Below are positions 31,537 through 62,883 of a stretch of DNA of 64,000 nt, one piece after another. Each line of letters opens with the position of its first letter. The stretch's first letter is position 1. The DNA lies in IMG/VR virus record IMGVR_UViG_2974725113_000001, positions 87,074 to 151,073 of that record; one strand, 5' to 3'. The notes below the pieces were generated by a model. That model saw only the letters and a list, made by a program, of their open reading frames with translations, searched no databases and was not told where the DNA came from. Both the position numbers and the translations under genes were made by a program. This DNA is from Oliverocinquevirus OLIVR5 (taxonomy: Duplodnaviria > Heunggongvirae > Uroviricota > Caudoviricetes).

Positions 31537-31605
31537 CTAATATCCTACGACTTAGTCCTTGTAAATAGCTAAATCCCCTCCAAGGCGAAATTAATTTCGC
31601 CTCGG
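31537..31605 (-). promoter_or_regulatory. PeSL-like element (hairpin with TTAATT loop, then GGAGGGGATTTAGCTATTTACA-N17-TATTAG)
   Basis: Hairpin CCAAGGCGAAA-TTAATT-TCGCCTCGG at 31580..31605; minus-strand -35 TTTACA at 31560..31565 and -10 at 31537..31542. Confidence 0.5.
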
Positions 31606-31611
31606 AAAGAT

Positions 31612-31899
31612 TTAAAGAATTCCTACCCAGACACAAATGCCATGGATGATCCCGATAGGGAATATAATGGCTCCAAAAGCGAGCAGAATCCACGAGGACG
31701 TCTTGATGCATACTACCACGTGAGTGATCCATGCCAGCGCTGGAATCAGGACAGGTGCTGCCACCGATACGATGAAAAGGAGAAACAGCGAGATCGCTTT
31801 AATCCAACCGAAGAAGATTTCCAACATTTCAATACCTTTCTTCAAAAACTTTGTTCTTGCTTGCGACGTCAGGAACAGGAACAACACTCCATCTGTCAC
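31612..31899 (-). CDS. small membrane protein
   Basis: 95 aa with three hydrophobic segments. Confidence 0.4.
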   Translation of the reverse strand: MTDGVLFLFLTSQARTKFLKKGIEMLEIFFGWIKAISLFLLFIVSVAAPVLIPALAWITHVVVCIKTSSWILLAFGAIIFPIGIIHGICVWVGIL

Positions 31900-32059
31900 G
31901 ATAAAGAGATGACCTCTCTAGGACACCTTTGTCGAAACGGAATGCTGCACAGTTCTCGTCTTTATAGACTTTAATCTTTCCTGGTTCGTTTGTAAACCAG
32001 GTAATGCAAGCCGCGACGGCATAATATTTGTTTTCATCTTCGAGGAAAATCGAAATCAT
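31829..32059 (-). CDS. hypothetical small protein
   Basis: 76-aa ORF overlapping the downstream gene by 71 nt; the start is uncertain. Confidence 0.3.
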   Translation of the reverse strand: MISIFLEDENKYYAVAACITWFTNEPGKIKVYKDENCAAFRFDKGVLERSSLYRDRWSVVPVPDVASKNKVFEERY

Positions 32060-32595
32060 TTGTTGAGACCTGCCTTGAACTTTTCGTTGTCGAGAATTCC
32101 GTTGATCCTGAAAGACCGAGTGTTGATCTGCTTCAGGATTTCTTCGAGTGCCGCCTTCGAGTCTTTCGCCGATCGAACACGTTTCCGAAGAGTTCGAATA
32201 GGAATGTTCGCATTGAGATAAAGGTTCAGCTCATCTTTCGTATTGATAATCAGATTGTGCGGACGACGCTTGTATTCGTCTTCATGAGCACGACCTTTGA
32301 GATAGAGAGATTCCTTCGTCTCTGCCTCTTCGAGCTCATCTTCCAGCTCAGACAATCGCATATTCACACGAATGAGCTGATTGAAGTACTTCGAATGCAG
32401 CTTCGAGATTCGTCGCTGTTCCGAAGATAAGTCGTTTCCGATTTCTGCATCTGCTTCCCAGGAGTCTAGGAGCTTTTCGAGAAACGACTTCTTATCGTTT
32501 TCTTCATGGTCTGACAAGATTTTCACTGTCCTCATAAACGTTGCCGTTGATAGTGTCCACCTCGATATTCGATAGACCGAACGTCGCGATGCCAT
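32056..32595 (-). CDS. hypothetical protein
   Basis: 179-aa ORF; an alternative start at 32535 would remove the overlap with the upstream gene. Confidence 0.4.
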   Translation of the reverse strand: MASRRSVYRISRWTLSTATFMRTVKILSDHEENDKKSFLEKLLDSWEADAEIGNDLSSEQRRISKLHSKYFNQLIRVNMRLSELEDELEEAETKESLYLKGRAHEDEYKRRPHNLIINTKDELNLYLNANIPIRTLRKRVRSAKDSKAALEEILKQINTRSFRINGILDNEKFKAGLNK

Positions 32596-33022
32596 ACACT
32601 ACAGGTGCTACACCAGAATTCGAGGAAAAGGAAATAGAATTTACGCCTCGAGGGAAAAGAGACGTATATCGAAGACCTACAACTCCTCGACCATGATTGT
32701 CAAGGATCGTGAGTGATGCGTTCGATACGAGAGACGGGATTTCAGTTTCATCAGAAGTCTTGATCTTAAGAGTCCAAGAAAGCACTTCCATGTATGTTTC
32801 CCATTTCTCATCCATGATCCATGTCAGAACAAGATCGTCTGGCCGCCAGACCGCGCCAGGTAGCCGTTCGATGATCTGTCCAATAGGAATATCAGTGGTG
32901 TCAAGACTGATCCCTGGCATGATAATATCGACCGCTCGAAGAGATGTCTTCGGAAGCTTCGGACAAGTGAATACGAAATTATCAGTATGCGAATTGTTTA
33001 GTTTGTCTTTATTTTCTGCCAT
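32504..33022 (-). CDS. hypothetical protein
   Basis: 172-aa ORF. Confidence 0.4.
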   Translation of the reverse strand: MAENKDKLNNSHTDNFVFTCPKLPKTSLRAVDIIMPGISLDTTDIPIGQIIERLPGAVWRPDDLVLTWIMDEKWETYMEVLSWTLKIKTSDETEIPSLVSNASLTILDNHGRGVVGLRYTSLFPRGVNSISFSSNSGVAPVVYGIATFGLSNIEVDTINGNVYEDSENLVRP

Positions 33023-33030
33023 ATCGATCC

Positions 33031-33429
33031 TCAGTATTCGAGTTCGAGTTCTAGCATCTCCTGTGCGACTCTCTTCACTTCATCCATATCCTTGTACGAA
33101 TGAGCCATAAGATTGAGCGCACAGGAAAAGAAGAACCGTGCTTGTTTCTGGACGAATTCTTCAGAGGTGTTTTGAACCATCTCGTTGAATTCGTCTTCCA
33201 TTCCTTCTACGACGTGGATATCGACAACATCCTCGTGATAGACCTTTTCTTCAAAGATTCGCTGCTTCAAAGAAGAGACGGATTTCTCCGTCTTCTTCAT
33301 TTTCTTGATGTCGTTCGAATTCCTTTTAGATCGGAAATATGACTGAGAGCATACAACGACAAGAACCACGAAGAACGCGAAAGTCGTTGATGCGCCGATG
33401 CCTGTAAGGATTGAAAGGAACAAATCCAT
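33031..33429 (-). CDS. type II membrane protein (N-terminal TM)
   Basis: 132 aa; TM helix in residues 5-27 followed by a charged domain. Confidence 0.4.
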   Translation of the reverse strand: MDLFLSILTGIGASTTFAFFVVLVVVCSQSYFRSKRNSNDIKKMKKTEKSVSSLKQRIFEEKVYHEDVVDIHVVEGMEDEFNEMVQNTSEEFVQKQARFFFSCALNLMAHSYKDMDEVKRVAQEMLELELEY

Positions 33430-33465
33430 GTTTATGCTTTCGTGTTCGAGAGGAAAGAGTAATCC

Positions 33466-34188
33466 TTAGCTAGAAGCTTTCGGAGTGCGAGTTTTCCTGA
33501 CTGGGCGTTCCTTTTTAGGCGCTGCCACCTTCTCTTTGGACTTGTCCACAGCAGGCTTGCGTCGAGCAGGAGTAGCAGAAGCCACATTATCCACTGCGTC
33601 GACCTCATCTTCCAGGCCGTCAATCGATAGCGGATCGTGACCGGAACCTGCTTGAGAAGCGCTTTTAGAAACTTCCACAGGCTTGGCAGGAGCCGCTTTT
33701 TTCTCTTGAGATTTGAACGCAACATATTCGTCGCGCCGAAAGATAAGGGCTCCGTTGGCGAACCTCCGGTTTCCAGCATAACGCTCCAGGTGGTCAGGAT
33801 CGAGATTGATTTCGCCGAGAGTTGCAGCGTAAACGATCTTGACGTCTTCTGCAGTCATCTGGTTCGTGAACTTGACGTAGAGTTCTTCGAGCTTCGGTCG
33901 ATCGAAATCCTGGCGGAAGAAGTACTGGAGATAGTCAGAGAAGAACTTCTCGAGCGATGCTGCTGGCCTTTCCATCCGATTGACGAGGGACTCAGGGACT
34001 TCGCCAGAAATCAGGATTTTCTTGTAGCCACCGCCGACGAGCCAGACGAAGTTGTCGAGGACCGTCGAGTGCTGCACTGGTCGTCCGTCCATGAAGGCAC
34101 GGATTTGAGAGTATGCTGCCTGGCCCTGGAAACGAAGGCTCTCCTGACGAGCTACCTTGCTTTGAAATTGTTCGTGTGAATTCTGCAT
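33466..34188 (-). CDS. hypothetical protein with Lys/Ala/Pro-rich histone-H1-like C-terminal tail
   Basis: 240 aa; C-terminal roughly 70 residues KKAAPAKPVEVSK...KEKVAAPKKERPVRKTRTPKASS. Confidence 0.4.
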   Translation of the reverse strand: MQNSHEQFQSKVARQESLRFQGQAAYSQIRAFMDGRPVQHSTVLDNFVWLVGGGYKKILISGEVPESLVNRMERPAASLEKFFSDYLQYFFRQDFDRPKLEELYVKFTNQMTAEDVKIVYAATLGEINLDPDHLERYAGNRRFANGALIFRRDEYVAFKSQEKKAAPAKPVEVSKSASQAGSGHDPLSIDGLEDEVDAVDNVASATPARRKPAVDKSKEKVAAPKKERPVRKTRTPKASS

Positions 34189-34228
34189 TGAATGCTCCGT
34201 TCGTTTATTCTTATGTAGTCTATTTTGA

Positions 34229-35140
34229 TCAGAAGAGGTCCAGGTCGGAAACAGTCTTCAGCTCTGGATAGAAGTCTTCGGCTTTCTGGACGTACTGACC
34301 TTGACGCAAACGAATGAGCATATTGTTTACATCGCCGCGACGAATTTCCTTGTTGTATTCGGTCATGATCCGATCCTTGACTTCTTTAGGAGTCTGAGTC
34401 AGATCGACGAGAGCCTTGTTGCGCTTGTAGTTGCGGAGAACTTCAGAAGCCGGAAGGTGTTTGAAATTCGTACGAAGGATTTCGTCTTCGACATCGACAG
34501 CAGCCATAAGTTGAGCTTTCATCTTAGCTGAAAGAGTGCGCTGCTTTTTGTTAGGATCGACGAAGGTATCGTCGTCAGAAAGAATATTTGGCACGTCGTC
34601 GCCAGGGTCGCCAGTCAGAGTCAGCAAACGATAGTAGTCCTTGCCGTTATCGGTCATGACTTTCTTGATCGGATTGTAGACCTGGATGTGCTTGAAACGA
34701 GTGAGCTGAGCCATGTCTTTATCAGCAGAGCAGACGAGGTTTGGACCAGGAGTTTCTTGAGCGAGAACAGCCATGACATCGTCACCTTCAGCGCCATAGC
34801 ACTTGATGGTACGATAGACCTGTTCGTCATGAAGAATATCCCACATGGAGTGGATTTCTTCGAAGACCTGCTGGATGATAGAACCTTCGAGGACTTCTTC
34901 AGCTTCGCGCTTTTTACGGCGACGGTACTTGTATTCTGGGAATACGTCGAAGCGGAAAGAACGATGGTCTGCACAAAGAATGAGCTCGCCGTATTTGCCA
35001 CGGAATTCCGTGTTGATTTGGCGAAGCTTGCCGAGAAGCAAGCTTGCCGGAGTAGTTTCTTGATCGTCCAACTCGTTGAGCTGGATTGCTTTCATGGTAA
35101 CTGCAGAAGCAATATTACTCCAATCGGCCAAGATTGCCAT
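34229..35140 (-). CDS. rnh: RNase H / flap endonuclease (T4 rnh-like 5'-3' exonuclease)
   Basis: 5'-nuclease motifs YGAEGDDVMAVLAQ (GxEADD-like) and SADKDMAQL (SxDKD); 303 aa (T4 RNase H is 305 aa). Confidence 0.6.
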   Translation of the reverse strand: MAILADWSNIASAVTMKAIQLNELDDQETTPASLLLGKLRQINTEFRGKYGELILCADHRSFRFDVFPEYKYRRRKKREAEEVLEGSIIQQVFEEIHSMWDILHDEQVYRTIKCYGAEGDDVMAVLAQETPGPNLVCSADKDMAQLTRFKHIQVYNPIKKVMTDNGKDYYRLLTLTGDPGDDVPNILSDDDTFVDPNKKQRTLSAKMKAQLMAAVDVEDEILRTNFKHLPASEVLRNYKRNKALVDLTQTPKEVKDRIMTEYNKEIRRGDVNNMLIRLRQGQYVQKAEDFYPELKTVSDLDLF

Positions 35141-35179
35141 GTTTTAGTCCTTTCGATTTAATTTAAGAGGACCATATCA

Positions 35180-35404
35180 TCAATAAATATCGATGTAAAT
35201 CTCTTTTTCTGCAAGTTCTTTCTGAATTTGTCTTTTAGCCTCCGAGACGGCCGAGTCGATGAGATACTTAATGAGCTCTACAGCATCATTTGCATCGGGC
35301 ATGCCGTGAACTCCGCCAAGACTCACGATGTTCAGGAGACTTTCTTCAAGTGATGTTGAAGCATCCTCGACTGTGTTGATTTGTGTGAAATCATTCAGCT
35401 TCAT
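35180..35404 (-). CDS. small hypothetical protein, paralog family C (copy 1)
   Basis: 74 aa; LGGVHGMPDANDAVELIKYLIDSAV parallels LGGYHGTGAADDVSKLVRYIIDESI in the adjacent ORF. Confidence 0.45.
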   Translation of the reverse strand: MKLNDFTQINTVEDASTSLEESLLNIVSLGGVHGMPDANDAVELIKYLIDSAVSEAKRQIQKELAEKEIYIDIY

Positions 35405-35405
35405 G

Positions 35406-35663
35406 TCATACTCCTTCGTCGAGGTCTTCGAAATTAGATTCGCCTGGAGGAAGGAGACGAACTCCTACTTCACGGAGGCGTTCTTCCAGAGACGTTTCGA
35501 ATTTCTTAATTGACTCGTCTATGATATAGCGGACGAGTTTCGAAACGTCGTCTGCCGCTCCTGTTCCGTGATATCCGCCGAGAGAAGCCAATGTGCAAAG
35601 TCGATTCTTGAGGATATTTTCCGCATGTTCGACGTTGACGATCTTTCTACCTTCAATAATCAT
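35406..35663 (-). CDS. small hypothetical protein, paralog family C (copy 2)
   Basis: 85 aa; tandem paralog of 35180..35404. Confidence 0.45.
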   Translation of the reverse strand: MIIEGRKIVNVEHAENILKNRLCTLASLGGYHGTGAADDVSKLVRYIIDESIKKFETSLEERLREVGVRLLPPGESNFEDLDEGV

Positions 35664-35667
35664 CTCA

Positions 35668-36048
35668 TTACACTTTCGGTGCGCGTTCGGCTATGCGTTC
35701 GCGATTGATTTTGATGTCGTATGCGTTTGGTTCCCATTCACCGAGCCATTCTGTGCCTATACCTTTGATGGTGTTGGCGTCTGGCCAGAAATTGACCTTG
35801 AACCCGCGTTTGTCCATTTCGAGACAAAGTTGAATTTGCCTCGAATAGAGATAGCCGAGTTTGTTGTAAAAGAAACGGACATGACCAGGACCGAGAGTGT
35901 AAAACTTCGGATTGCGCTTGTCGTCAGGTTTTTCTTTGCGCTCGATAGCTTTACGAACGAGATTGAAAACACGAGGAAGCTCGCGATACTCGGCCACGAG
36001 ATGCTTGTCGTGAAGTTCAGAAGGAGGGACGACATTTATGCGAGTCAT
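35668..36048 (-). CDS. denV: pyrimidine-dimer DNA glycosylase (T4 endonuclease V, DenV)
   Basis: [33 protein letters not shown]...[23 protein letters not shown]...KRGF is near-collinear with T4 EndoV [33 protein letters not shown]...[22 protein letters not shown]...KRGF. Confidence 0.9.
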   Translation of the reverse strand: [126 protein letters not shown]

Positions 36049-36074: not shown

Positions 36075-36103
36075 CTTATAGCAAAGGTCTAAGCCTTTGT
36101 AAA
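36075..36103 (-). promoter_or_regulatory. early-type promoter on minus strand (TTTACA-N17-TATAAG) upstream of denV
   Basis: Minus-strand sequence TTTACAAAGGCTTAGACCTTTGCTATAAG; a GGAG RBS follows. Confidence 0.45.
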
Positions 36104-37430: not shown

Positions 37431-37459
37431 CTTATATTCAAGGTCTAAGTGATTGTAAA
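37431..37459 (-). promoter_or_regulatory. early-type promoter on minus strand (TTTACA-N17-TATAAG)
   Basis: Minus-strand sequence TTTACAATCACTTAGACCTTGAATATAAG, upstream of the gene starting at 37404. Confidence 0.45.
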
Positions 37460-38843: not shown

Positions 38844-39758
38844 ATGATCGGAATTATTCCATCTGAGTTCGGCAAGAACTTGCAATTCTGGACTGGCATC
38901 GTTGAGGATCGAGGTGATCCTCTGCAGCAGGGCAGGGTACGCGTGAGGATTTTCGGACGTCACACTCTAGATACATCACTCATCCCTACGACTTCGCTCC
39001 CATGGGCGCAGGTCATGCAAGGAGTGACTTCTGCTGCCATCGGTGGTGTTGGTCAATCTCCAACTGGGATTATGATTGGAACACTCGTCCTTGGTTTCTT
39101 CATGGACGGAAATGACATGCAGCAGCCTTGCGTACTCGGGACTCTTGGCCCTATTGAAGGCGTCACGTCTGCAAACGGATCAGAAGGAAACGGCGTAGTG
39201 AACTCCGGCGGCATCGAAGATTCGAATCACAATCTACCTGGAAACGTGAAGTTCTCCGAGTCCGAACCTCCGTGGCTTTCTATTGCCCGCGGAGAGATTG
39301 GTCAAAAGGAATTCTCTGGTCCTTCAGACAATCCTCGGATTCTCGAGTATCACAAGACCGTAGGCATCTCCGGAAGCGAGACGATCCCTTGGTGTTCGTC
39401 TTTCGTGGCATGGTGCCTGAAGAAGTCTGGTCAGTCTATCCAGGGAGCTAATGCCATGGCTCGTTCATGGGAGAAGGCTCAGTGCATGGAGAAACTCGAT
39501 ACGCCTATTCGTGGATGTATCGCTGTATTCTCTCGTCCTCCGAATCCTAACTCTGGCCACGTCGGTTTCGTCGATGCTATCCAAGGTGGTTCCATCGTCA
39601 TGGTCCACGGAAATACGCAGGACTCTGTCGCTCGATCCGGTAAAAGTGCCCAAAGACTCGTTGGTTTCTTTTGGCCACGCGGATATCCGAAGGAAGCGTA
39701 TGCCATTAAGGAAGACACCGGCCCTGCGGCACCTGCGGCAAGCGATCGCGAGTCTTGA
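38844..39758 (+). CDS. baseplate central spike (gp5-like N-terminal OB domain) fused to a CHAP peptidoglycan-hydrolase domain
   Basis: N-terminus FWTGIVEDRGDPLQQGRVRVRIFGRHT...LPWAQVMQGVTSAAIGGVGQSP matches the gp5 N-terminal OB fold; C-terminus has Cys and His motifs (CSSFVAWCL, GHVGFVD) typical of CHAP amidase/peptidase; 304 aa, with no beta-helix region. Confidence 0.55.
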   Translation: MIGIIPSEFGKNLQFWTGIVEDRGDPLQQGRVRVRIFGRHTLDTSLIPTTSLPWAQVMQGVTSAAIGGVGQSPTGIMIGTLVLGFFMDGNDMQQPCVLGTLGPIEGVTSANGSEGNGVVNSGGIEDSNHNLPGNVKFSESEPPWLSIARGEIGQKEFSGPSDNPRILEYHKTVGISGSETIPWCSSFVAWCLKKSGQSIQGANAMARSWEKAQCMEKLDTPIRGCIAVFSRPPNPNSGHVGFVDAIQGGSIVMVHGNTQDSVARSGKSAQRLVGFFWPRGYPKEAYAIKEDTGPAAPAASDRES

Positions 39759-39807
39759 TCAAAATAGATAAACAGACATAGACGTCTGGCTATCAAGGAA
39801 TAGGACA

Positions 39808-40116
39808 ATGACAAAGCATGTTACAAAGAACCTCATAAAGAAAACAACGTTCTTCCAGGACTTTATCCAGGACGTGGAAATTGGCACGATTGAAGACATC
39901 GAAGATATCTCGGTGTCTGCATATGATCAATTCGATTTCGAGAATTTCCTCGAGTTCGTAGAGTTCATCAAGAAGGACGAAAAGACTATCACGATCAAGG
40001 TTCCGGTAGAACACGTGAAACGATTCGAGCGAGGCCAGATGATTATCGTGGTCATTGCCCTTCAAAATGGTGAGGTCACTAATCCCGCAAACCTTTGCGT
40101 CGAGATATCTAGATGA
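39808..40116 (+). CDS. hypothetical protein
   Basis: 102-aa acidic ORF. Confidence 0.35.
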   Translation: MTKHVTKNLIKKTTFFQDFIQDVEIGTIEDIEDISVSAYDQFDFENFLEFVEFIKKDEKTITIKVPVEHVKRFERGQMIIVVIALQNGEVTNPANLCVEISR

Positions 40117-41563: not shown

Positions 41564-42161
41564 AGATTGGTGCACATACTTAATTGTGTATAACGGACGA
41601 GAGTTTCCTCCGTTTTACATAGGGTATTCTTCTAAAGTCAAAATCGAAAATGGTTACAGAGGATCAGTTTCTTCTAAAAAGTATAAGGCTCTTTGGAAGA
41701 AAGAACTTTCCTCTAATCCTCATCTTTTCAGGATTAAAATCCTGAAGTCCTTTGACACTAAGGAAGAAGCCATCAAATACGAAACCGAAATCCAGACGCA
41801 TTTTGCCGTTCATAAATCCAAACTTTTCGTGAATATGGCTATCGCCGGAGAAAAGTTCATGGGTCCTGAAATTATGGACCCTAAGGTGAAAGCGAAAATC
41901 TGCCGTTTCGGTAAGAAACATTCTGAAGAAACTAAAAGGAAAATCGGAGAAGCTCATAAAGGCCTAAAACAAAGCGAAGAGGCCAAAGCGAAGATTTCCG
42001 TTTCGAATAAAGGTAAGAAACATTCTGTAGAGACTAGGGTAAAAATGTCTAAGTCTCACACCGGATCGAAGAGGCCTCCAGATATCCGTAAAAGAATGTC
42101 GGAGAGCGCAAAATTGGCTTGGGAGAAAAGGAAAAATGGCAAACAAACTATTCTCACATAG
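41556..42161 (+). CDS. GIY-YIG homing endonuclease (Seg-like), paralog 3
   Basis: CTYLIVYNGREFPPFYIGYSS; HFAVHKSKLFVNMAIAGEKF; repeats (KHSEETKRKIGEAHKG, KHSVETRVKMSKSHTG). Confidence 0.65.
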   Translation: MVKDWCTYLIVYNGREFPPFYIGYSSKVKIENGYRGSVSSKKYKALWKKELSSNPHLFRIKILKSFDTKEEAIKYETEIQTHFAVHKSKLFVNMAIAGEKFMGPEIMDPKVKAKICRFGKKHSEETKRKIGEAHKGLKQSEEAKAKISVSNKGKKHSVETRVKMSKSHTGSKRPPDIRKRMSESAKLAWEKRKNGKQTILT

Positions 42162-46801: not shown

Positions 46802-46869
46802 CCCTGAGGCGATTAATTTCGCCTCTGAGGGATTTAGCTGTTTACATCCACATCGAGATAGCGTATAAA
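46802..46869 (+). promoter_or_regulatory. PeSL-like element (hairpin GAGGCGA-TTAATT-TCGCCTC, then GAGGGATTTAGCTGTTTACA-N17-TATAAA)
   Basis: Hairpin at 46806..46825; -35 TTTACA at 46841..46846; -10 TATAAA at 46864..46869. Confidence 0.5.
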
Positions 46870-46929: not shown

Positions 46930-47298
46930 ATGTCTATCGCAATTACCGGCTACTTCATCGTCAACTCTCGCGGTTACAAGACTGCAATCGCTCTTTCTGC
47001 CGGTCTCGCCGAAGGTATGATGTTCGTTGCAAATCCTGTTCGCAATCGTTCGATCACTACTCTTCGTGAAATGCATCATTTCGTTTCCAACCGTCTGGCT
47101 GCCGATCCTCAGGCACGCATCGAAGACTCTGAAGGCAATGTCCTGGAACAGCGCGAACTCTTCGACTTCGCTGCATACTCCCGCTACCGTACGACTGCTT
47201 CTGCTCGCAAGATCGTCGTCGACAAGGACAGCTTCAAGTTCGCTCATCTGACGCAACCAGAAATGAACGAAGTTTATTCGTCGATCTTCAACGCGTAA
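46930..47298 (+). CDS. hypothetical protein
   Basis: 122-aa ORF downstream of a PeSL-like element. Confidence 0.45.
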   Translation: MSIAITGYFIVNSRGYKTAIALSAGLAEGMMFVANPVRNRSITTLREMHHFVSNRLAADPQARIEDSEGNVLEQRELFDFAAYSRYRTTASARKIVVDKDSFKFAHLTQPEMNEVYSSIFNA

Positions 47299-48592: not shown

Positions 48593-48597
48593 TATGG

Positions 48598-48662
48598 GAG
48601 GCCGGGAGATTAATTTCTCTCGGCCTTTTCTCATTTACAACTCCATTTTCCTGTGGTAAAAT
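48598..48662 (+). promoter_or_regulatory. PeSL-like element (terminator hairpin with TTAATT loop plus TTTACA-N17-TAAAAT)
   Basis: GGCCGGGAGA-TTAATT-TCTCTCGGCC then TTTT; -35 at 48634..48639; -10 at 48657..48662; lies between uvsX and the helicase gene. Confidence 0.5.
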
Positions 48663-51399: not shown

Positions 51400-51888
51400 A
51401 TGCCTTACAACCCTAATAAATATCCTAAAGCGAGGAACATCTCACGAAGCTTTGCCACTGACAGAAATTTCAATCTTGCTTTCTCACAGTTCGTTTACGG
51501 ACTAGGAAAGAATGGTTCTGGTAATACGCATTTCAGTTTCACGTCCTACGTGTCTTCGACTGAAGCTTATCCGGTAGCCTTTACTCCAGAAATCGCTGTT
51601 AAGTACGAAGTCGATCTGATCTTCATCGGTAATCTTCAGAATGAGTCGTGGATGATGTTCCACGTTTCTGAATTTAGACCGACTGACGATGGAACAGGAG
51701 AACCGAAAGCGAAGTATCTATCTTCGTTCAAGGTGCCTGTGAGTTTTGATCTTGAAGCGATCAGACGTTCTTACTTTGAAAGGCCAGCTGTCATCGACGG
51801 CGAAAACATTAGGTTCGAGTCTGGTCTCGGAGGTTCCCTGTTTGTCATCAACAAAACAGGACTTTCGAAAATTGACGAAGTTACTTAG
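51400..51888 (+). CDS. hypothetical protein
   Basis: 162-aa ORF. Confidence 0.4.
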   Translation: MPYNPNKYPKARNISRSFATDRNFNLAFSQFVYGLGKNGSGNTHFSFTSYVSSTEAYPVAFTPEIAVKYEVDLIFIGNLQNESWMMFHVSEFRPTDDGTGEPKAKYLSSFKVPVSFDLEAIRRSYFERPAVIDGENIRFESGLGGSLFVINKTGLSKIDEVT

Positions 51889-52466
51889 GTAATGTCCAAC
51901 CTTTGTACGATGCAGATTTTCCTAGGAGCAATTGGCTAATAGCTCCCTTGTTGAGGCCGTGTTCGAGACAGAATTCGGCCCTTCCAACAAACTCGTGTAA
52001 TATCCCATCTGGAGAAATCAATTTTCCTGATTTCATTCTTTTCGTAGTTCGATTTGCTCTTTGAATCGCAAACGTTTCTCGAAGTCTTCTTCTAGTTTCT
52101 TCTGAATTTTTTCGGAATTCCTGATTCTTTCCTTTTACGATTGATTTCCTCATGCTTCAATCGAGTTTCAGGGGACCATTTCCTAGCTCCTCCGAATCCT
52201 CCGGGAGCTAAATTGTAAAAGTCTTTAGACTCTATGGCGTCGTACTTAATAATGAAGTGTGCTTCCATAACAGAACACTCTTCCCTAGATTCGTATTCTC
52301 CTAAGATTTTGCATGAGAAGTTTTCAATTCCGTATTTCTTTATTGCTCTAGAGATTAATTTCCCTGAACCTCGATAATTGTCTTTTAGAGGATTAACGTT
52401 GTGCTGACCTATGTATTTCTTGCCGTTTAAGATATTCTCGGTCATATAGACATAAAACATTTCCAT
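51881..52466 (-). pseudogene. GIY-YIG homing endonuclease split by a frameshift
   Basis: ORF 52092..52466 carries the GIY-YIG core (FYVYMTENILNGKKYIGQ, NLAPGGFGG); the overlapping ORF 51881..52153 in another frame carries the basic C-terminal region (KNSEETRRRLRETF); the two halves overlap by about 60 nt. Confidence 0.5.
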
Positions 52467-52529
52467 TCTCCTTTAAGTTGTGTTATTTAAGAAAGGTACA
52501 CCGTTCGTGTAATCTCAAAAGGAAATTTA

Positions 52530-53129
52530 ATGACGCTACTAGAGAAATCAGACGCTGACTTATTAATGAAGCAGCTCGAAGTCGTTCGCATATCTTCAGG
52601 GATCATCAGAAATCATACTACGATGGTTTCGAACGGTTCTGCTTATTCGAACGGGGCCCATATCGGGAACTGTATTCAGCTCCTTCTCCTCGTTCTTCCT
52701 ACAGCATCTCCTGCACTTATTCGACACACGGTTTTCCACGACTATCCTGAGTTCGTGACCGGTGACATCGTCGGGGACGCCAAGGTCAAGTTCCCAGAGC
52801 TCAAAGCTGTTGTGGACATCATCGAAGAAAAGATCGACAAGGAGTTTATTATCCTTGACGGTTATGATATGAACGAGGCTGAACAGAAATTCTTGAAAGC
52901 ACTCGATCGTCTTGAGCTCTACATTTGGTGCCTCGAGCAATACCAGCTCGGCTGCCGTTCTCCGCGATTCATGAAAATGGTAGATCGCCTGGAAATCGCA
53001 GTCGTAGATTTCATCAACGCCGGATCGAAGATTGCCAAAGGAGATGACGATCTTATCTCTATTGATGAAGGCTTTAAGAAGCTCGGTGTCATCTACCGTC
53101 GAACATACGAATCATTCTTTGATATTTGA
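52530..53129 (+). CDS. HD-domain 5'-deoxynucleotidase (YfbR-like)
   Basis: FHDYPEFVTGDI matches YfbR YHDASEVLTGDLP; upstream His and downstream KALDRLELYIWCLEQ helix pattern; 199 aa. Confidence 0.55.
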   Translation: MTLLEKSDADLLMKQLEVVRISSGIIRNHTTMVSNGSAYSNGAHIGNCIQLLLLVLPTASPALIRHTVFHDYPEFVTGDIVGDAKVKFPELKAVVDIIEEKIDKEFIILDGYDMNEAEQKFLKALDRLELYIWCLEQYQLGCRSPRFMKMVDRLEIAVVDFINAGSKIAKGDDDLISIDEGFKKLGVIYRRTYESFFDI

Positions 53130-53142: not shown

Positions 53143-53763
53143 ATGGCATTCCGCGTAGGATTCGTCGGATATAAAAACTCCGGCAAAACTCACATCTCAT
53201 CGAAGCTGAAGTCTGCATCGGCTTTCGTAAAGACGATCGGTTTTTCTGATCCACTTTATGAAACGGTCGTTGCAGCCACCGGTATTCCGATGGAAGATTT
53301 CCAGAACAAGGAAATCCGAGAACTTCCTGATCCTCGTCTTGGAGGTCGGTCTATCCAATATGCTCTGAACACTCTCGGCTCTGAATGGGGTCGGAAGATG
53401 ATGTTCGAAGAGATTTGGACGAACCGCGCCTTCAAAAATGAAGAAGACGACATGATCAACATTTTCGACAATGTTCGGTTTACAAACGAACTCGAAGGTG
53501 TTAGAAAAGGTTCGAAGAGTGTTCTCTTCGCTATCAAAAATCGAGACGTCAAAAACGACGGATCGTATCCAGAGAAGGAAATCGCTAAGCTCCAGAAGCA
53601 GTGCGATTTCGTGATCGATAACACAGGTCAACAGTTCGCGATGGACACTCACGCTATGACCTTGTTCCTCGATTATCTCCACGTCATATCCGCCAACAAT
53701 CTATCCATCGAAGAGGCAGCATATTGCCTTCACGGTGTGAAATATATTCTGCAGAAATTCTGA
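53143..53763 (+). CDS. 1: deoxynucleoside monophosphate kinase (T4 gp1-like)
   Basis: P-loop VGFVGYKNSGKTH matches gp1 LIFLSGVKRSGKDT; IGFSDPLYE matches LAGPIKDAL; RSIQYALNTLGSE matches RRLMQALGTD; 206 aa. Confidence 0.55.
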   Translation: MAFRVGFVGYKNSGKTHISSKLKSASAFVKTIGFSDPLYETVVAATGIPMEDFQNKEIRELPDPRLGGRSIQYALNTLGSEWGRKMMFEEIWTNRAFKNEEDDMINIFDNVRFTNELEGVRKGSKSVLFAIKNRDVKNDGSYPEKEIAKLQKQCDFVIDNTGQQFAMDTHAMTLFLDYLHVISANNLSIEEAAYCLHGVKYILQKF

Positions 53764-56370: not shown

Positions 56371-56413
56371 GTTTACATCCGTTTCATTTTTGTGTAGAGT
56401 AACGGATGTAAAC
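56371..56413 (+). promoter_or_regulatory. early-type promoter embedded in a 13-bp perfect inverted repeat (operator-like)
   Basis: GTTTACATCCGTT...AACGGATGTAAAC arms at 56371..56383 and 56401..56413; TTTACA at 56372..56377; -10 TAGAGT at 56395..56400 lies between the arms. Confidence 0.45.
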
Positions 56414-57477: not shown

Positions 57478-57487
57478 TCAAACTTTC

Positions 57488-57553
57488 CAAGGCGATTAAT
57501 TTCGCCTTGGAGGGGATTTAGACGTTTACGAAAACAATTTCCTATTATATGCT
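57488..57553 (+). promoter_or_regulatory. PeSL-like element (perfect hairpin CCAAGGCGA-TTAATT-TCGCCTTGG, then GAGGGGATTTAGACGTTTACG-N17-TATGCT)
   Basis: Hairpin at 57488..57510; -35 TTTACG at 57525..57530; -10 at 57548..57553. Confidence 0.5.
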
Positions 57554-57633
57554 AACGTTAACATCAAGCATCTTTCCGATTTAGAAGAGGCTCAAGAATT
57601 CATCGATTTCTGCATAGAGAAAGGTATTTACAA

Positions 57634-58307: not shown

Positions 58308-58336
58308 TTTACAAGGTCTAAATCGTGTGATAGACG
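58308..58336 (+). promoter_or_regulatory. early-type promoter (TTTACA-N17-TAGACG)
   Basis: TTTACAAGGTCTAAATCG shares the conserved spacer; starts immediately after the stop of the upstream gene. Confidence 0.4.
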
Positions 58337-58462
58337 TAAGAGAAATCTTTAACGAAAATCAGGAGCTAGTCTTGACCAGGTCTGAATTTATCTCTTTCGT
58401 CTCTTGCGTGATCGTAATTCTTGCATCCGTCCACGTAATCACGAAAATCTTCGGAGTTTAAA

Positions 58463-58930
58463 ATGGAAGACTTTTCTAAATACGAGAAACTGAACGAGCT
58501 CAAAGACAGTCTAAAAGCCGCTCTCGATCTCTTCGACTCGAATCAGTCCTATTCCGCAAGTCGAAATTTCTACCACCGAACGAGAAGTTCATATCATCGT
58601 ACTACAGGTAAGGCGTATCCGAAGCACATTAAGAGTCTTTATCACAACGTGATCGAGGCCAGGACGATCCTTGCGCACCTCAGGCATTTCAACTCTTTGA
58701 GTTGTGTTTCTCGAGACGAAATCGAGTTCGCCGAGAAGTTCACGGCTGTATACGTCGAAGATCATTTTTCAAAAGAATACGACCTCCTTCTGGAAATACT
58801 CAGAGCTAAAGAGGACTTCGAGATAGAGAAGATTACGAAGAAGAAGCGGAACCAGGATTTGGCTATGGCTTTCACTGCTGCCGCGGTCATCGTCCTGGCA
58901 GTCATTTATCGGCTTTTCCAGGATTTCTGA
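58463..58930 (+). CDS. hypothetical protein with C-terminal TM helix
   Basis: 155 aa; C-terminal LAMAFTAAAVIVLAVIYRLF. Confidence 0.4.
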   Translation: MEDFSKYEKLNELKDSLKAALDLFDSNQSYSASRNFYHRTRSSYHRTTGKAYPKHIKSLYHNVIEARTILAHLRHFNSLSCVSRDEIEFAEKFTAVYVEDHFSKEYDLLLEILRAKEDFEIEKITKKKRNQDLAMAFTAAAVIVLAVIYRLFQDF

Positions 58931-58931
58931 A

Positions 58932-59171
58932 ATGGTTAAAAAGGAAGATAGAGAACGCCTTGCTTCGTATATCGTCGGAACATGCCAGAGCATTTTCATG
59001 TGTCTGGAAATTCTGGAACTCGAAGAAGGCTACGATTGGGAAGATGAACTTCTTACAGAAAATGTTGAGCAGTGCCTCGGATGCGGATGGTGGCACTACT
59101 CTTATGAACTAGAGGTCCATGACGAATGGGCTTATTGTGACAGCTGCGCGCCAGTGGAGAGCGACGAATGA
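58932..59171 (+). CDS. small acidic zinc-ribbon-like protein
   Basis: 79 aa; CLGCGWWHY...YCDSCAP gives two CxxC pairs. Confidence 0.4.
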   Translation: MVKKEDRERLASYIVGTCQSIFMCLEILELEEGYDWEDELLTENVEQCLGCGWWHYSYELEVHDEWAYCDSCAPVESDE

Positions 59172-59452
59172 TACTACGTAAATATCCAACACTTGCCAAT
59201 GTTATCCGTCTCAAGGCAGACATCCTGGGTCTCAATGGCCAGGAAGAGATGCTGAGACTTGAACAAATTTTCGGTCTCCACTGCGCGATGTATCAAATTA
59301 AGGTGGAAGACCTTATCCTCACAGACAAATTCTTCAGGAAGACGGACGTCATGTACTGGGAAGACATCATGCGAGAAAGGTCATCAGAGCTCTTCGACCT
59401 TGAGATGAGGATCGCGGCATCTATCTTGGAAACTTTCTTCGACGATATTTGA
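59168..59452 (+). CDS. hypothetical protein
   Basis: 94-aa ORF with ATGA overlap. Confidence 0.4.
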   Translation: MILRKYPTLANVIRLKADILGLNGQEEMLRLEQIFGLHCAMYQIKVEDLILTDKFFRKTDVMYWEDIMRERSSELFDLEMRIAASILETFFDDI

Positions 59453-59461
59453 TTTTTCTTA

Positions 59462-59490
59462 TTTACAAGGCTTTAAGTCTAGGATAGGAA
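59462..59490 (+). promoter_or_regulatory. early-type promoter (TTTACA-N17-TAGGAA)
   Basis: TTTACAAGGCTTTAAGTCTAGGA shares the conserved spacer. Confidence 0.4.
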
Positions 59491-59505
59491 TAATCATAAC
59501 GAAAC

Positions 59506-59733
59506 ATGGAGACATCCAAAATGACACGTTCTGAAATCCGCGAAGAGAAAGCTCTCAACAAGTTTATCAAATCGAATGGAGGTCAACCGATCGGTTGTCT
59601 TGCTGAACGTAGTTTCATCACGAATCTCTTCGATCCGGTTATGCCAAACGGAAAAAGTCTCCTGACAGGCAAAGCTCTTAAGAAAGGTACGAAAGTGAAG
59701 CTCTTCGGAACTGGTGAAATTGTTGAAATCTGA
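59506..59733 (+). CDS. hypothetical small protein
   Basis: 75-aa ORF. Confidence 0.4.
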   Translation: METSKMTRSEIREEKALNKFIKSNGGQPIGCLAERSFITNLFDPVMPNGKSLLTGKALKKGTKVKLFGTGEIVEI

Positions 59734-60205
59734 TATGGAAGAAATACTCGTTCGATTTAACCAGGAAGGTGTTGGGAGAGTCCTTTCAAATCTCTCCAAG
59801 CACCGTTTCATTTTCAGAGGGGTCCAGTGCCAATCTACGGAAGGAATTCTTCACTCTGTTAAGGTGAATGATCCGGAGTTCCAGCGTGGATGGTGTATGA
59901 AGCACGGAGTAGAGGCCCAGAGAATTCCCTCGAAATACAAACCGGATTCCTGGAAAGAGAAGCAGACTCTGTGGTGGCAAGGAACTCCAATGATGCGGAC
60001 GTCTCGAGTCTATCGGGAGTTCGTAAAGGAAATGTATTACGAAGTCTCGCTTCATTGTCCGGACTATCGTGATGCGCTCCTCTCCACGAAAGGAAAGCGT
60101 CTCATCCATCCGATGGGTCCTATCGAACCGAACAAAACGGTTCTGACCAGACACGAATTCACATCCGCTCTAGAATGGGTCAGAGACCAATGGATTTCTG
60201 ACTAA
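59714..60205 (+). CDS. hypothetical protein
   Basis: 163-aa ORF; the start may be the internal Met of MEEILVRF. Confidence 0.4.
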   Translation: MKLLKSDMEEILVRFNQEGVGRVLSNLSKHRFIFRGVQCQSTEGILHSVKVNDPEFQRGWCMKHGVEAQRIPSKYKPDSWKEKQTLWWQGTPMMRTSRVYREFVKEMYYEVSLHCPDYRDALLSTKGKRLIHPMGPIEPNKTVLTRHEFTSALEWVRDQWISD

Positions 60206-60264
60206 ATTCTTATTTACTCTGACAATGATCTGGTGTATGTTCACCAAATCAATAAGGAAAAAGT

Positions 60265-61947
60265 ATGACAAAGAAACATCACTACGGGATGGAAATCGAC
60301 GAGCAGTTGATTTTGGAATTGTTCCCGTTCGATAAGCCTCGTGATATCCAGCTCGAAGCTATCAAGAAATCTCTTCATGAATTCAACGAGGGTGTCGAAC
60401 ACGTTATCCTCGATGGTCCTACCGGTGCAGGTAAGTCTGCCATCGCCTACACGATCGCGCGGTATATCCAGCACACGACTTATGGCGAGGAGAAGTCTCT
60501 TTTCACCACGATCACGAAATATCTCCAGGACCAGTACATTCGAGACTTTCCTGATCTTCATTCTATCCGTGGAGCTGCTGATCCTATCTACACCTGCGAT
60601 GATCTCCACAACAGGAACACCGAAGGTTGTGTCCTCCATGTGAAGGCGACTGCGAAGAAGTGCATGGGTGAATGCCCTTACAGGCGTGCCCAGCAGAAAT
60701 TCATGAAGGGTCCTTTGTCCCTCACAAATACTCACTTCGTCGCTCGTATTCCTCGATCCTGGCATTTCCTCGTTCTCGACGAGTGTCATGAAGTCGGTTC
60801 TGTCATTACCTCGGCTGCCGAAACTCCTATTTTCCATGAGGACGAAGTCAAGTTCAATCTTCTCTTCGGACCAGGTTCTTCTCAACTCGTAGAAATCTGG
60901 CGTGGCGTGCGTGAAAACCTCTCTCAGTACGAGCATGGCGAAGTCTTCGAAATGCCTGTCTTCGATGGTCTCCATGAATTCGATCTAGAGAAAGCCAAGA
61001 AGGAAGTCGAAGGAATGGCTGGTCAGACAGGTTATCGTTCTCTCGCAGGTCATCTCGCAGGTCTCACCTCTGCCATGTCTGCGTGCTGGATTATGGAAGG
61101 CAAAGAGGCCATCGCTCACCGTGATCCGAAGGAAATGGAGAAGGACCCGAAGCTGAAGCCGATGATCAAACCGGTCTATGCTGCTGACTTCGCCGACAAG
61201 CTCATTTTCTCTAAGGGTGAGAAAATTCTTCACATGTCTGCAACGGTATGTGGCGATGATGCATACAGCCGAGAGCTTGGCTTCAATGATCACAACTGGG
61301 CATCTGTCAGTGTGCGCCACCCTATCCCTGCAGACACCAGGAAGGTGTATTTCAATCCTCTCGGATGGATGTCGGCAAAGACCGAAGAGAAGGACTTCCA
61401 CAACACTGCGAAATTCGTTGATGCTCTCGACGAGAAGTACGACGCGAACATGATGATCCATACTGCCTCGTACAAGCGAGCCAATCGGATCAATGATCTG
61501 TCCTATGCTCACATCGATCTTCCGAAGTCTGCCAAGGAAGCCATCCAAATTCTCCAGGATGGTGCCAATTCCAAGAAGAAGAAAATCGTCGCTTCTCCTT
61601 CGATCATGGCCGGTGTAGATGGCAAGGATGATCTTTGCCGGATCAACGTGATTGCGAAGCTTCCATTCCCTTCATTCGGCGATCCTCGAGTTCGGTACAT
61701 TTCCCAGAAGCGTCCGTATCTCATTACTCAGCAGGTCGTTCGTCATGTTGTCCAGGCAGCAGGCCGTGGAACTCGACACGAGAACGACTTCTCTTACACG
61801 TTCATCCTCGACGGGATGTTTGACAAGCTCTACAATGATAACAAACAGATGTTCCCTGAATGGTTTAAAGAGTCCATCCAGTGGCGCTACAACGGAGTCC
61901 TTCAAAATCTGCCAGAAGGTCTTGAACTCAATAGGAAGGAAAATTAA
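60265..61947 (+). CDS. DinG/XPD(Rad3)-like Fe-S helicase
   Basis: Walker A VILDGPTGAGKSAIAY; four-Cys insertion between Walker A and B (CDDLHNRNTEGC...KKCMGECPY) typical of the Fe-S domain; DEAH-like LVLDECHE; C-terminal QAAGRGTRHEND (motif VI); 560 aa. Confidence 0.55.
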   Translation: MTKKHHYGMEIDEQLILELFPFDKPRDIQLEAIKKSLHEFNEGVEHVILDGPTGAGKSAIAYTIARYIQHTTYGEEKSLFTTITKYLQDQYIRDFPDLHSIRGAADPIYTCDDLHNRNTEGCVLHVKATAKKCMGECPYRRAQQKFMKGPLSLTNTHFVARIPRSWHFLVLDECHEVGSVITSAAETPIFHEDEVKFNLLFGPGSSQLVEIWRGVRENLSQYEHGEVFEMPVFDGLHEFDLEKAKKEVEGMAGQTGYRSLAGHLAGLTSAMSACWIMEGKEAIAHRDPKEMEKDPKLKPMIKPVYAADFADKLIFSKGEKILHMSATVCGDDAYSRELGFNDHNWASVSVRHPIPADTRKVYFNPLGWMSAKTEEKDFHNTAKFVDALDEKYDANMMIHTASYKRANRINDLSYAHIDLPKSAKEAIQILQDGANSKKKKIVASPSIMAGVDGKDDLCRINVIAKLPFPSFGDPRVRYISQKRPYLITQQVVRHVVQAAGRGTRHENDFSYTFILDGMFDKLYNDNKQMFPEWFKESIQWRYNGVLQNLPEGLELNRKEN

Positions 61948-62324
61948 TGCGTGACATTCGATTGTGGGAAATTCTTCGAGACGTCCTCGATGATCCGAAT
62001 GATGGACGAACAATTCATCAGTTCGTTTTCCCTCGTCAGAAATTCCGAGTGACGACAAACCTCATCATTTTGGCTAAGCAATACATCCAGGATGGGAAGA
62101 AAGTCATTTTCGTTACCAGACGAGGAGTTGAGGCATCTCGTCTCCGTAAAGACCATCCAGGTCTAAGAGCTGTTCCAGAAGCAGACCTCGGGAAATCCCT
62201 CGAAGGAAATTCTTTCGATTATGTCATTGCCGACAGCTACATCACATACGACACGATGGACGCCGTTGCAGAAGCTCTCGACAGCAAGACTGTCAAGAAA
62301 TTCTTGAAGGTCGAGACGAAATAA
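61947..62324 (+). CDS. hypothetical protein
   Basis: 125-aa ORF with ATGA overlap to the helicase gene. Confidence 0.4.
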   Translation: MRDIRLWEILRDVLDDPNDGRTIHQFVFPRQKFRVTTNLIILAKQYIQDGKKVIFVTRRGVEASRLRKDHPGLRAVPEADLGKSLEGNSFDYVIADSYITYDTMDAVAEALDSKTVKKFLKVETK

Positions 62325-62342
62325 ACCCTCTCAAAATACTTT

Positions 62343-62807
62343 ATGGATAGCATAACGGATACACAGTATTCGCGCTTTCCTCGAGGATATGTCTACACCG
62401 ACGGTCGACACTATAAGATTTATAGATCGATCGTCGACAAAGCTGTTTCTGAAAATCGGAACAAGAACGGTGAGATTTATTTCGAATCTCATCATATTGT
62501 TCCGAAGTCGTATGACGGAGATAATTCGAAGGAAAACCTCGTTCTCTTGACTGCACGCGAACATTACATTTGTCATCTCCTTCTAACGAGGATGTTTTCG
62601 AACATCACGATGCGAAAGAAGATGACAAGAGCTTTGGCGTACTTTAGGAGCAGAGGGAATTCTGCTTCTAGGAGTTTTGCTTTGGCAAGGACTATCCAGT
62701 CGCGAGGGATGCGCGGAAACAAGATCGGGATCGGCTACAAGCAATCTCAAGAGCATATAGACAAGAGAGTTGCCTCACTGAAGAAAACTCTCGCGTCTAA
62801 GAAATGA
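62343..62807 (+). CDS. HNH homing endonuclease
   Basis: HHIVPKSYDGDNSKENLVLLTAREHYICH shows the HNH motif H-H...N...H. Confidence 0.6.
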   Translation: MDSITDTQYSRFPRGYVYTDGRHYKIYRSIVDKAVSENRNKNGEIYFESHHIVPKSYDGDNSKENLVLLTAREHYICHLLLTRMFSNITMRKKMTRALAYFRSRGNSASRSFALARTIQSRGMRGNKIGIGYKQSQEHIDKRVASLKKTLASKK

Positions 62808-62811
62808 TTAG

Positions 62812-62883
62812 ATGGACCCATCGAATTAATTTTCGTTTGGGTCCATTTTAGGGGTTTACAAGCTTTAAGTTCGTGTGTATGGT
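62812..62883 (+). promoter_or_regulatory. PeSL-like element (hairpin ATGGACCCA...TTAATT...TGGGTCCAT, then TTTTAGGGGTTTACA-N17-TATGGT)
   Basis: Hairpin at 62812..62846; -35 at 62855..62860; -10 at 62878..62883. Confidence 0.5.

Follow-up and report, generated by a model that had tools for sequence, protein, structure and literature searches.

To our knowledge, reports of promoter-early stem-loop (PeSL) cassettes have so far been limited to T4-type phages that infect enterobacteria and vibrios. A PeSL joins a stem-loop to a sigma-70-like early promoter, and such units are documented in RB49/phi1, T4/PST and KVP40/nt-1 (PMC2839356, PMC4122927). The experimentally mapped junctions of PeSL mini-circles lie in one of two intervals, from the -10 element to the start codon or from the ribosome-binding site (RBS) to the -10 element (PMC2839356). 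Reporter assays in the original PeSL work showed an effective stem-loop terminator and a strong promoter. Here, we analyse dispersed hairpin-promoter repeats of Agrobacterium phage OLIVR5 (NC_055841.1, 151,073 bp; Pootjesviridae, Heverleevirus). The genome was analysed entire; positions with the prefix w, and those in the lists below, refer to the window, which is its final 64 kb (record 87074-151073, identity 100%), and become record positions on adding 87,073. Despite its T4-like core genes (gp32-like, UvsX, UvsW, clamp, clamp loader, gp46/47-like, late sigma, baseplate wedge), OLIVR5 is classified in the separate family Pootjesviridae, and not in the T4-type subfamily from which the PeSL definition comes.

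Judged by the PeSL features that can be tested on a sequence, which are present, the OLIVR5 repeats are PeSL-like cassettes, here in a phage family that is new for them. The stem-loop stands right before a sigma-70-like early promoter, followed by an RBS and a start codon; the region upstream is AT-rich; many dispersed, conserved copies exist; and the -35 element is TTTAC, as in the T4/PST consensus TTTACW-N17-TAYWAT. The copies adjoin insertions and deletions (indels) among close relatives, modules are flanked by two copies, and the junctions fall just 3' of the -10 or at the RBS, as mapped for PeSL mini-circles. The differences are the assignment to the Rhizobiales-infecting Pootjesviridae, the presence of a strong hairpin at only 10 of 53 promoters, and two traits that are not in the published description, namely that several stems share conserved sequence and a foot GAGGGGAU, mostly U-tract-free, and that the loop overlaps a conserved distal promoter element. 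Terminator activity and mini-circles, established by experiment for PeSLs, would be predictions for the OLIVR5 cassettes. In the papers searched on OLIVR phages, phiM9 and Atu_ph04, we found no description of these motifs.

Anatomy, copy numbers and breakpoint positions were observed directly, as was conservation in other genera, and from these we consider it likely that the repeats are intergenic composite regulatory cassettes, in which a hairpin ends the upstream unit, a promoter restarts the next one, and the repeated sequences help modules to shuffle. The transcript of the upstream unit would fold into a stable hairpin that marks the end of this unit, and directly 3' of the hairpin a host sigma-70-type promoter would restart transcription of the next early unit, the hairpin being built round the distal A/T element of that promoter. 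As promoter, RBS and hairpin sequences recur often, they may act as short homologies for the gain, loss and swap of modules. The same arrangement and junction places in a separate family infecting Rhizobiales suggest greater generality, and regulatory linkers that insulate modules and assist their swapping may be a common route of accessory-gene shuffling in large lytic phages.

Promoter family and anatomy of the cassettes

By iterating a weight matrix from the seed TTTAC, we obtained 53 promoter copies in the OLIVR5 genome, compared with 0-2 in 20 shuffled genomes; 47 of the 53 hits exceed 20 bits. The matrix was trained and scored on the same genome, yet it transfers to two phages whose whole genomes were taken in, Ochrobactrum phage ORM_20 (elsewhere "Ochrobacterium"; 45 hits) and Atu_ph04 (genus Rollinsvirus; 30 hits). 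The pattern, ATTTAGnTG-TTTACA-N17-(TG)TAnnnt (in detail g.aATTT(a/t)g.T(g/a)-TTTACA-N17, with TG preceding TA(t)(a/g)a(t)), comprises four conserved blocks: an A/T-rich distal element (AATTAATT / AAATAATT) ~62 nt 5' of the inferred start, the proximal ATTTAGnTG, the -35 TTTACA and an extended -10 TGnTAnnnt. An RBS and the start of an open reading frame (ORF) of at least 30 codons follow within 130 nt at 43 of the 53 promoters, including every window cassette. We infer from these elements an active promoter of the host sigma-70 type, with early timing. T4 early promoters are similar in the -35 GTTTAC, the extended -10 and the conserved A/T-rich upstream blocks, and BLAST with a cassette gave matches of 21-30 nt in T4-like coliphages, two of them under annotated promoter/terminator features, at weak E-values. 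However, this likeness is one of short motifs only, and the distal element of OLIVR5 is dyad-like (GAAATTAATTTC) and lies ~62 nt upstream. An operator-like dyad in the promoter spacer (CAAGG..CCTTG) was considered and dropped, as complementarity over the 53 promoters does not exceed 0.34.

A strong hairpin immediately precedes ten of the promoters. Of these cassettes, six lie in the window, with the -35 at w19827+, w31565-, w46841+, w48634+, w57525+ and w62855+, and the others at record 7189+, 35570-, 58185- and 86873+. At all 10 sites, 4-15 nt separate the end of the hairpin from TTTAC(A/G/T), and the -35/-10 spacer is 17 nt. The window cassettes are as follows.

19789..19855, plus strand: hairpin ATGGGTCAGAAGAA-aaat-TCTTCTAGCCCAT, T-run, TTTACA 19827-19832, -10 TATGAA 19850-19855
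31537..31605, minus strand: hairpin CCGAGGCGAAA-ttaa-TTTCGCCTTGG, GAGGGGAT 31573-31580, ATTTAGCTA, TTTACA 31560-31565, -10
46802..46869, plus strand: 3' of the baseplate wedge gene; CCCT-GAGGCGA-ttaatt-TCGCCTC-TGAGGGAT, ATTTAGCTG, TTTACA 46841, -10 TATAAA
48596..48662, plus strand: at the junction of the UvsX-like recombinase and helicase genes; GGGAGGCCGGGAGA-ttaatt-TCTCTCGGCCTTTT, TTTACA 48634, TG-TAAAAT
57483..57553, plus strand: 3' of the lipoprotein gene gp155; CTTTCCAAGGCGA-ttaatt-TCGCCTTGGAGGG, GAGGGGAT 57510-57517, ATTTAGACG, TTTACG 57525, -10 57548-57553
62812..62883, plus strand: 3' of the MobE homing endonuclease gene; ATGGACCCATCGAA-ttaatt-TTCGTTTGGGTCCAT, TTTAGGGG, TTTACA 62855, -10 TATGGT

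An earlier, sequence-only reading of the window had listed six hairpin sites, each followed by TTTAC(A/G)-N17-TAnnnn, and all six are present where it placed them. Its count of five or more sites holds too: the whole genome has 10 hairpin-plus-promoter cassettes, 53 promoters and 11 units of a hairpin with GAGGGGAT. Some details need correction. The TTAATT loop, called palindromic, is a mirror repeat and no reverse-complement palindrome. The core GGCGA-TTAATT-TCGCC, assigned to three copies, occurs at w46806-46825 and w57491-57506, while the third (w31584-31601, minus) reads GGCGAAATTAATTTCGCC. The sequence GAGGGGATTTAG, thought to be common to the copies, is exact at w31569-31580 (minus) and w57510-57521, but w46826 has GAGGGATTTAG, and w48598 and w62812 have a T-run instead (at w62812 with an additional AGGGG). 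Nor is GAGGGGATTTAG a single signal, being made up of the hairpin foot GAGGGG and the promoter upstream element ATTTAGnTG. As the proximal ATTTAGnTG is also found at promoters without a hairpin, the ATTTAG(C/A)(T/C)G of the sequence-only reading belongs to the promoter, as its upstream element.

Nine window hairpins fold with z from -3.9 to -6.8 against dinucleotide shuffles; for the six listed cassette hairpins the range is -4.9 to -6.8, with -6.8 at 57483..57553. With the foot counted, the full hairpins have 13-21 bp and are imperfect and bulged. Their stems group into a few related families; those at w48598 and w62812 are unrelated, and both lack GAGGGGAT. The cassette at 48596..48662 is kept in all relatives, the one at 46802..46869 has the full GAGGGGAT in the versions of the relatives LG08 and IC12, and the one at 57483..57553 has a positional orthologue at ORM_20 119929-. 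The 3' half of 62812..62883 is ~90% like the cassette at record 7189. The minus-strand cassette 31537..31605 is predicted to drive gp204.

TTAATT occurs 30 times genome-wide on both strands, compared with ~105 expected (an estimate from base counts). Six of these form the loop of a long-stemmed, promoter-adjacent hairpin, and one more is part of the w31591 variant. Promoter-less hairpins carry other loops (TAAT, TTGATT, TTTTAC, ATT, TTCG), and loops are variable: at 35594, OLIVR5 differs from IG49, a whole-genome relative with ~95% identity. The 7-mer AWTWAWT lies 25-31 nt upstream of the -35 at 14 of the 53 OLIVR5 promoters (control 1.1%) and 24-33 nt upstream at 13 of the 45 ORM_20 promoters (control 0.4%); in each of these phages, at least five promoters bearing it have no GC hairpin (e.g., GAAATAATTTC, GGAAAATAATTCC). 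The same loop in completely different stems is not explained by recent duplication alone, and the A/T element stands at the same distance from hairpin-free promoters, which assigns the loop to the promoter. The TTAATT loop is best read as the distal A/T-rich promoter element ~62 nt upstream of the inferred start, with the hairpin built round it; this would account for its presence in otherwise unrelated stems.

The dyad might also act as DNA. The A/T-centred inverted repeat ~62 nt upstream would then bind a dimeric regulator or the alpha subunit of the polymerase, or extrude as a recombination-prone cruciform, and the RNA hairpin would be incidental. Indeed, the spacing between the A/T element and the -35 is constant even where the "stem" is GAAA/TTTC, too weak for an RNA hairpin. 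In addition, DNA palindromes do rearrange, as is shown by two loops that have opposite orientations in OLIVR5 and IG49 and by a deletion junction that coincides exactly with a loop centre. However, the sense RNA is clearly more stable than the antisense, through G-U pairs, and the same hairpin family is found at gene ends with other loops and no promoter. The stems also carry compensatory substitutions, and the sequence is therefore not kept as a protein site would need. A purely DNA-level role is in our view quite improbable. At the inverted loops the stems are kept: OLIVR5 record 86844 has TTTATT against AATAAA in IG49 (29105-29130), and record 70588 has GTAAAA against TTTTTAC (IG49 12186-12212), a flip-flop at the palindrome centre.

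Hairpin foot and transcript ends

The foot GAGGGGAT has 11 copies in OLIVR5 against ~4 expected, and without exception a GC-rich hairpin at a gene's 3' end comes first, its 3' arm running straight into the box; all copies are in sense orientation. A promoter comes next in five cases, four copies lie at converging gene ends, and two are between co-directional genes (record 26076- and w21171+, both promoter-less). In ORM_20, all 12 copies are likewise directly 3' of a hairpin at a gene end, and Atu_ph04 has the variant hairpin-GAGGGGA(A/T), both ahead of promoters and 3' of the capsid gene. Among 35 distinct GAGGGGA contexts from four phages, 32 have a hairpin that ends 0-1 nt before the box, or only a U-run in between. 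The 3' foot of the hairpin family is GAGGGGAU, pairing with an upstream C/U run, and its promoter-less members stand at converging gene ends and between genes. In the minimum-energy fold, the GAGGGG box is paired with the upstream pyrimidine run (CCCUC, CUUUC, CCUUUC). Each of the six outer stem pairs of the GAGGGGA hairpins occurs as several standard pair types; these were counted directly rather than by a covariance model, stem lengths being too variable for reliable alignment. For 28 of 32 copies, folding is stronger in the sense RNA than in the antisense (means -25.5 and -21.9 kcal/mol), which argues for an RNA structure on the sense strand.

The window has the following hairpins of this kind outside the cassettes.

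5322..5367, either strand: two-way hairpin where the gp32-like gene (plus) converges on gp244 (minus); z -5.7
18362..18398, minus strand: hairpin GGAGCAGGA-ataaa-TCCTGCTCC then TTTAGGGGAATTAG, 3' of the HNH gene gp220, at a converging gene junction
21133..21178, plus strand: long hairpin CCTTTC..GGAGGAGAGAAGC-ttcg-GTTTCTCTCCTCT-GAGGGGAT, 3' of gp213; z -3.9
30459..30500, plus strand: hairpin ending TTTTGGGGGAG, 3' of the major capsid gene
30562..30593, minus strand: hairpin AGACCCAGG-tatttg-CCTGGGTCT and GAGGGGAT, 3' of gp204 and facing the capsid gene

The first of these reads ATCCCCTC-CAAGGCCAGA-ttttac-TCTGGCCTTG-GGTAGGGTT. Its stem prefix ATCCCCTC is the reverse complement of GAGGGGAT, and the minus-strand reading ends in GAGGGGAT (w5324-5331); the hairpin at w5321-5358 belongs to the same stem family, as had been proposed. 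The TTTAGGGGAATTAG after 18362..18398 is a variant of the G-rich foot. Hairpins followed by GAGGGGAT had also been placed at 21171 and 30560, both on the minus strand; both exist, and 30562..30593 is indeed on the minus strand, but the one at 21171 is on the plus strand. No early promoter lies downstream of 21133..21178; the head-closure gene starts at 21198, and the orthologous hairpin of ORM_20 is at 7134-. In both phages, TAAAATAA stands between the hairpin with its GAGGGGAT and the head-closure start codon (w21179-21200; ORM_20 7134, minus), and it may be a T4-like late promoter of the TATAAATA type. Capsid-gene hairpins with a G-rich foot are also found at ORM_20 155241- and Atu_ph04 50462+; in the three genera, the stems 3' of the major capsid gene are unrelated, and are followed by U3-4 and G(A)GGGGA.

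Like intrinsic terminators, these hairpins are GC-rich, in sense orientation and straight after the stop codon, and some are two-way at converging gene ends. Short U-runs (3-5) follow at w19820, w48626 and w62847 and after the capsid gene, i.e., in the capsid-gene copies and in the T-run class of cassettes (record 7189, w19827, w48634, w62855). Most copies, however, carry GAGGGGAU in the position of the U-tract: among 70 strong hairpin-strand instances in OLIVR5, two end in a U-rich tail, against 12 with AGGGG. The lack of a U-tract after most GAGGGGAT hairpins counts against termination by them, as does a generic terminator scan of w44001-64000, which required at least 5 T in 8 and recovered none of the four resident cassette hairpins. 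A further caution is that a stop or processing of transcripts at the hairpin is inferred from the sequence, as are promoter activity and timing.

Early and late mRNAs of phage T7 have RNase III processing hairpins, several of which adjoin promoters. By analogy, the OLIVR5 hairpins might not be terminators but RNA-processing or 3'-end-protecting structures (RNase III-type sites, exonuclease barriers) by which polycistronic transcripts, early as well as late, are cleaved or stabilised, with the adjacency of some to promoters being incidental. They resemble the T7 hairpins in being intergenic, long, imperfect and, in most copies, free of a U-tract, and in recurring at gene boundaries, some of them next to promoters. 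The bulged stems of 13-21 bp, the pairing of the G-rich foot with the C/U run via G-U, the conservation of a 3' foot that an intrinsic terminator does not need, and the promoter-less copies between co-directional genes (record 26076-, w21171+) point the same way. Unlike in T7, several stems are shorter than two helical turns and the promoters appear to be of the host-polymerase type; cleavage would be a prediction at most, and Rfam at the gathering score gave no family match in the whole window. Moreover, 4 of the 11 copies lie at converging gene ends, where termination is obviously needed, and the capsid-gene copies do have U3-4 before the box. An RNA-processing role of the hairpin, also raised by the sequence-only reading, is in our view the less likely alternative, and it would be compatible with cassettes that shuffle.

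The ribosome-loading role suggested in the same place finds no support, since the box sits 3' of stop codons and in the cassettes is followed by a promoter, not by a start codon. Likewise, GAGGGGAT was rejected as an RBS: among the copies examined, none has a suitably spaced start codon, and in five a promoter comes next. A bolder proposal concerns the hairpin with GAGGGGAU, a foot built on GGGG, the tetranucleotide that these genomes otherwise avoid most strongly; this hairpin is shared by three or more genera of Rhizobiales T4-like phages. It would form a family-wide transcript-end signal without a U-tract, recognised by some dedicated factor of host or phage for termination, pausing or cleavage, and the TTAATT-type loop may double as a promoter element. 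We consider this doubtful; if true, one 70-nt unit would combine the end of one transcript, the start of the following one and a recombination linker. In any case, the foot motif stands out as a clean candidate for transcript-end signalling of an unusual kind, and the 53-copy promoter together with the rule of a hairpin with GAGGGGAT can serve directly as a transcription map of OLIVR5-like phages, a group under development for biocontrol. Exact-pattern scans of IMG/VR added no members: GAGGGGATTTANNNNTTTAC matched 10 loci, none linked to a hairpin and hence chance matches, and CCTTGGAGGGGATTTAG matched none.

GGGG/CCCC is the most depleted tetranucleotide in these phages (observed/expected 0.07 in OLIVR5, 0.11 in ORM_20 and 0.06 in Atu_ph04), and GGGC/GCCC and CTAG are likewise low. 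About 15 of the 62 G-runs of OLIVR5 are hairpin feet. Sense and antisense strands of coding DNA show no asymmetry in this respect. OLIVR5 encodes a deoxycytidylate hydroxymethyltransferase-like enzyme, and its cytosines may therefore be modified. A run of modified C in the template that blocks the polymerase was considered as the origin of the GAGGGG foot and the GGGG depletion, and was rejected, as sense G-runs in coding DNA (29) outnumber C-runs (16).

Module exchange between relatives

Whole-genome alignment of OLIVR5 and IG49 reveals 18 structural differences; in 11 of them a promoter -35 lies no more than 75 nt from a breakpoint, for which a uniform null gives p 2e-7. On rough nulls based on intergenic gaps, which are approximate only, p is between 1.6e-4 and 0.026. 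Indels involve 5 of the 10 cassettes and 6 of the 43 other promoters. The following modules and remnants illustrate the exchange.

30624..31505, minus strand: gp204, 293 aa, variable cargo, distant paralogue of gp154; in OLIVR5 and LG08, not in IG49
57561..57633, plus strand: remnant, the last 73 nt of the 216-227 aa gene (IG49 CDS0137), deleted in OLIVR5; now the gp154 leader
59445..60241, plus strand: module of gp149 and the homing endonuclease gp148, with promoters 59462 and 60213

The PeSL-like composite cassettes with polymorphic cargo that the sequence-only reading envisaged are borne out at w31565, w57553 and w19854, where gene content differs. At w31565, IG49 lacks gp204, its promoter and the left hairpin arm, with the junction at the loop centre, w31593; LG08 has gp204 and a 273-bp insertion at the capsid hairpin (w30496). 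At w57553, IG49, LG08 and IC12 have an extra gene (216-227 aa) straight after the -10, and homology to OLIVR5 breaks there. The two genes of the supposed family B, gp204 and gp154, are indeed paralogous, if distantly (24% identity, E 3e-7). At w19827, IG49 and LG08 carry two direct promoter copies round a module of 0.8-1.1 kb, and OLIVR5 has a single, hybrid copy, which resembles copy 1 on the hairpin side and copy 2 on the -10 and leader side; the MSSRHSVYIPH gene comes next after the promoter in both OLIVR5 and IG49. Both ends of the gp149-gp148 module are an 11-nt promoter -35 repeat, TTCTTATTTAC, and IG49 has a different HNH gene at this site, on the opposite strand. The genes gp011 and gp068, each the first gene 3' of a cassette, are bounded by repeated RBSs, and one IG49 replacement has its breakpoint 10 nt upstream of the promoter 2312..2340. 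The opposite case, named in advance by the sequence-only reading, was that of no further copies and identical gene content in relatives; the genome has extra copies, and the relatives differ. These junctions suggest that recombination uses the repeats.

Several observations weigh against such a role. The strictest rough null gives only p 0.026, and the association of promoters with indels is inflated because viable indels must fall between genes anyway. In the relatives examined, no polymorphism was seen at w46802, w48598 and w62812, i.e., at three of the five main window copies, and the comparison with LG08 and IC12, which limits this check, covers only part of the window. The gp009 indel and a 777-bp indel between OLIVR5 and OLIVR6 (first 50 kb taken in) lie at unrelated microhomology, and many further indels are homing-endonuclease genes, which are self-mobile. 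All this would suit ordinary, independent terminators and promoters, alike through shared function and a few local duplications, which are linked to indels only since viable indels sit between transcription units, and which have no part in recombination; given the paralogy of gp204 and gp154, two cassettes may have spread by gene duplication. Independent signals do not, however, readily explain the w19827 module between two direct promoter copies with its hybrid OLIVR5 counterpart, the 11-nt -35 repeat at each end of the gp149-gp148 module, the repeated RBSs that bound gp011 and gp068, or the fact that cassettes are hit more often than other promoters. We regard this explanation as unlikely and favour composite cassettes that assist shuffling.

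The 777-bp indel is the main part of the OLIVR5/OLIVR6 difference reported in the literature, and it was rejected as a cassette event: it lies within coding DNA, at the microhomology TTTTA(G)TTCGA, and no cassette is present. The stretch (OLIVR5 record 19982-20000 vs OLIVR6 19981-20757) is also found in IG49, so the event was a deletion in OLIVR5, unrelated to cassettes. A patchwork of HNH/homing-endonuclease genes in OLIVR5, IG49, LG08 and IC12 occupies w40113-40811, 41586-42161, 51881-52566 and 59714-60205, with IG49 genes at 20922-21629, 31126-31827 and 39200-40108; such genes explain much of the remaining difference in gene content.

Other promoters and gene calls of the window

The matrix also hits the window at the following promoter copies.

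1150..1178, plus strand: promoter copy
2312..2340, plus strand: promoter copy with the distal AAATAATT element, GC hairpin absent
3666..3694, plus strand: promoter copy
10224..10252, plus strand: promoter copy; an extra IG49 gene is inserted at the -35
12464..12492, plus strand: promoter copy
14504..14532, plus strand: promoter copy
15398..15426, plus strand: promoter copy
19220..19248, plus strand: promoter copy
35171..35199, minus strand: promoter copy
36075..36103, minus strand: promoter copy, repeat family D8
37431..37459, minus strand: promoter copy, repeat family D8
53479..53507, plus strand: weak promoter copy, 13.7 bits
54231..54259, plus strand: promoter copy
56372..56400, plus strand: promoter copy
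58308..58336, plus strand: hairpin-free promoter copy 3' of gp154, repeat family D9

Early genes with a stereotyped translation start, GGAGTTCnnAAATG, are found at w19856-19870, w62890-62913 and record 7238-7252 and 7412-7426, and two starts of this type are the short direct repeats that bound the gp011 indel.

The promoter and hairpin map points to several probable wrong-strand calls in the reference annotation. The RefSeq calls gp203, gp172, gp217-215 (w19837-20523) and gp246 seem to be on the wrong strand or spurious. The gp203 call (w31499-31636) overlies a hairpin-promoter cassette, and gp172 (w46834-47247) opposes a plus-strand ORF, 46930-47298, which is served by a promoter and called in IG49 and LG08. 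The gp246 call (w3468-4808, minus, 446 aa) overlaps three plus-strand ORFs, annotated in IG49 as a phosphohydrolase, a hypothetical protein and, in part, a gp32-like single-stranded DNA-binding protein. Finally, degenerate direct repeats of 21-24 nt (families D1-D5) at w27530-28260 encode acidic, D/E/K-rich repeats in the head scaffolding gene.

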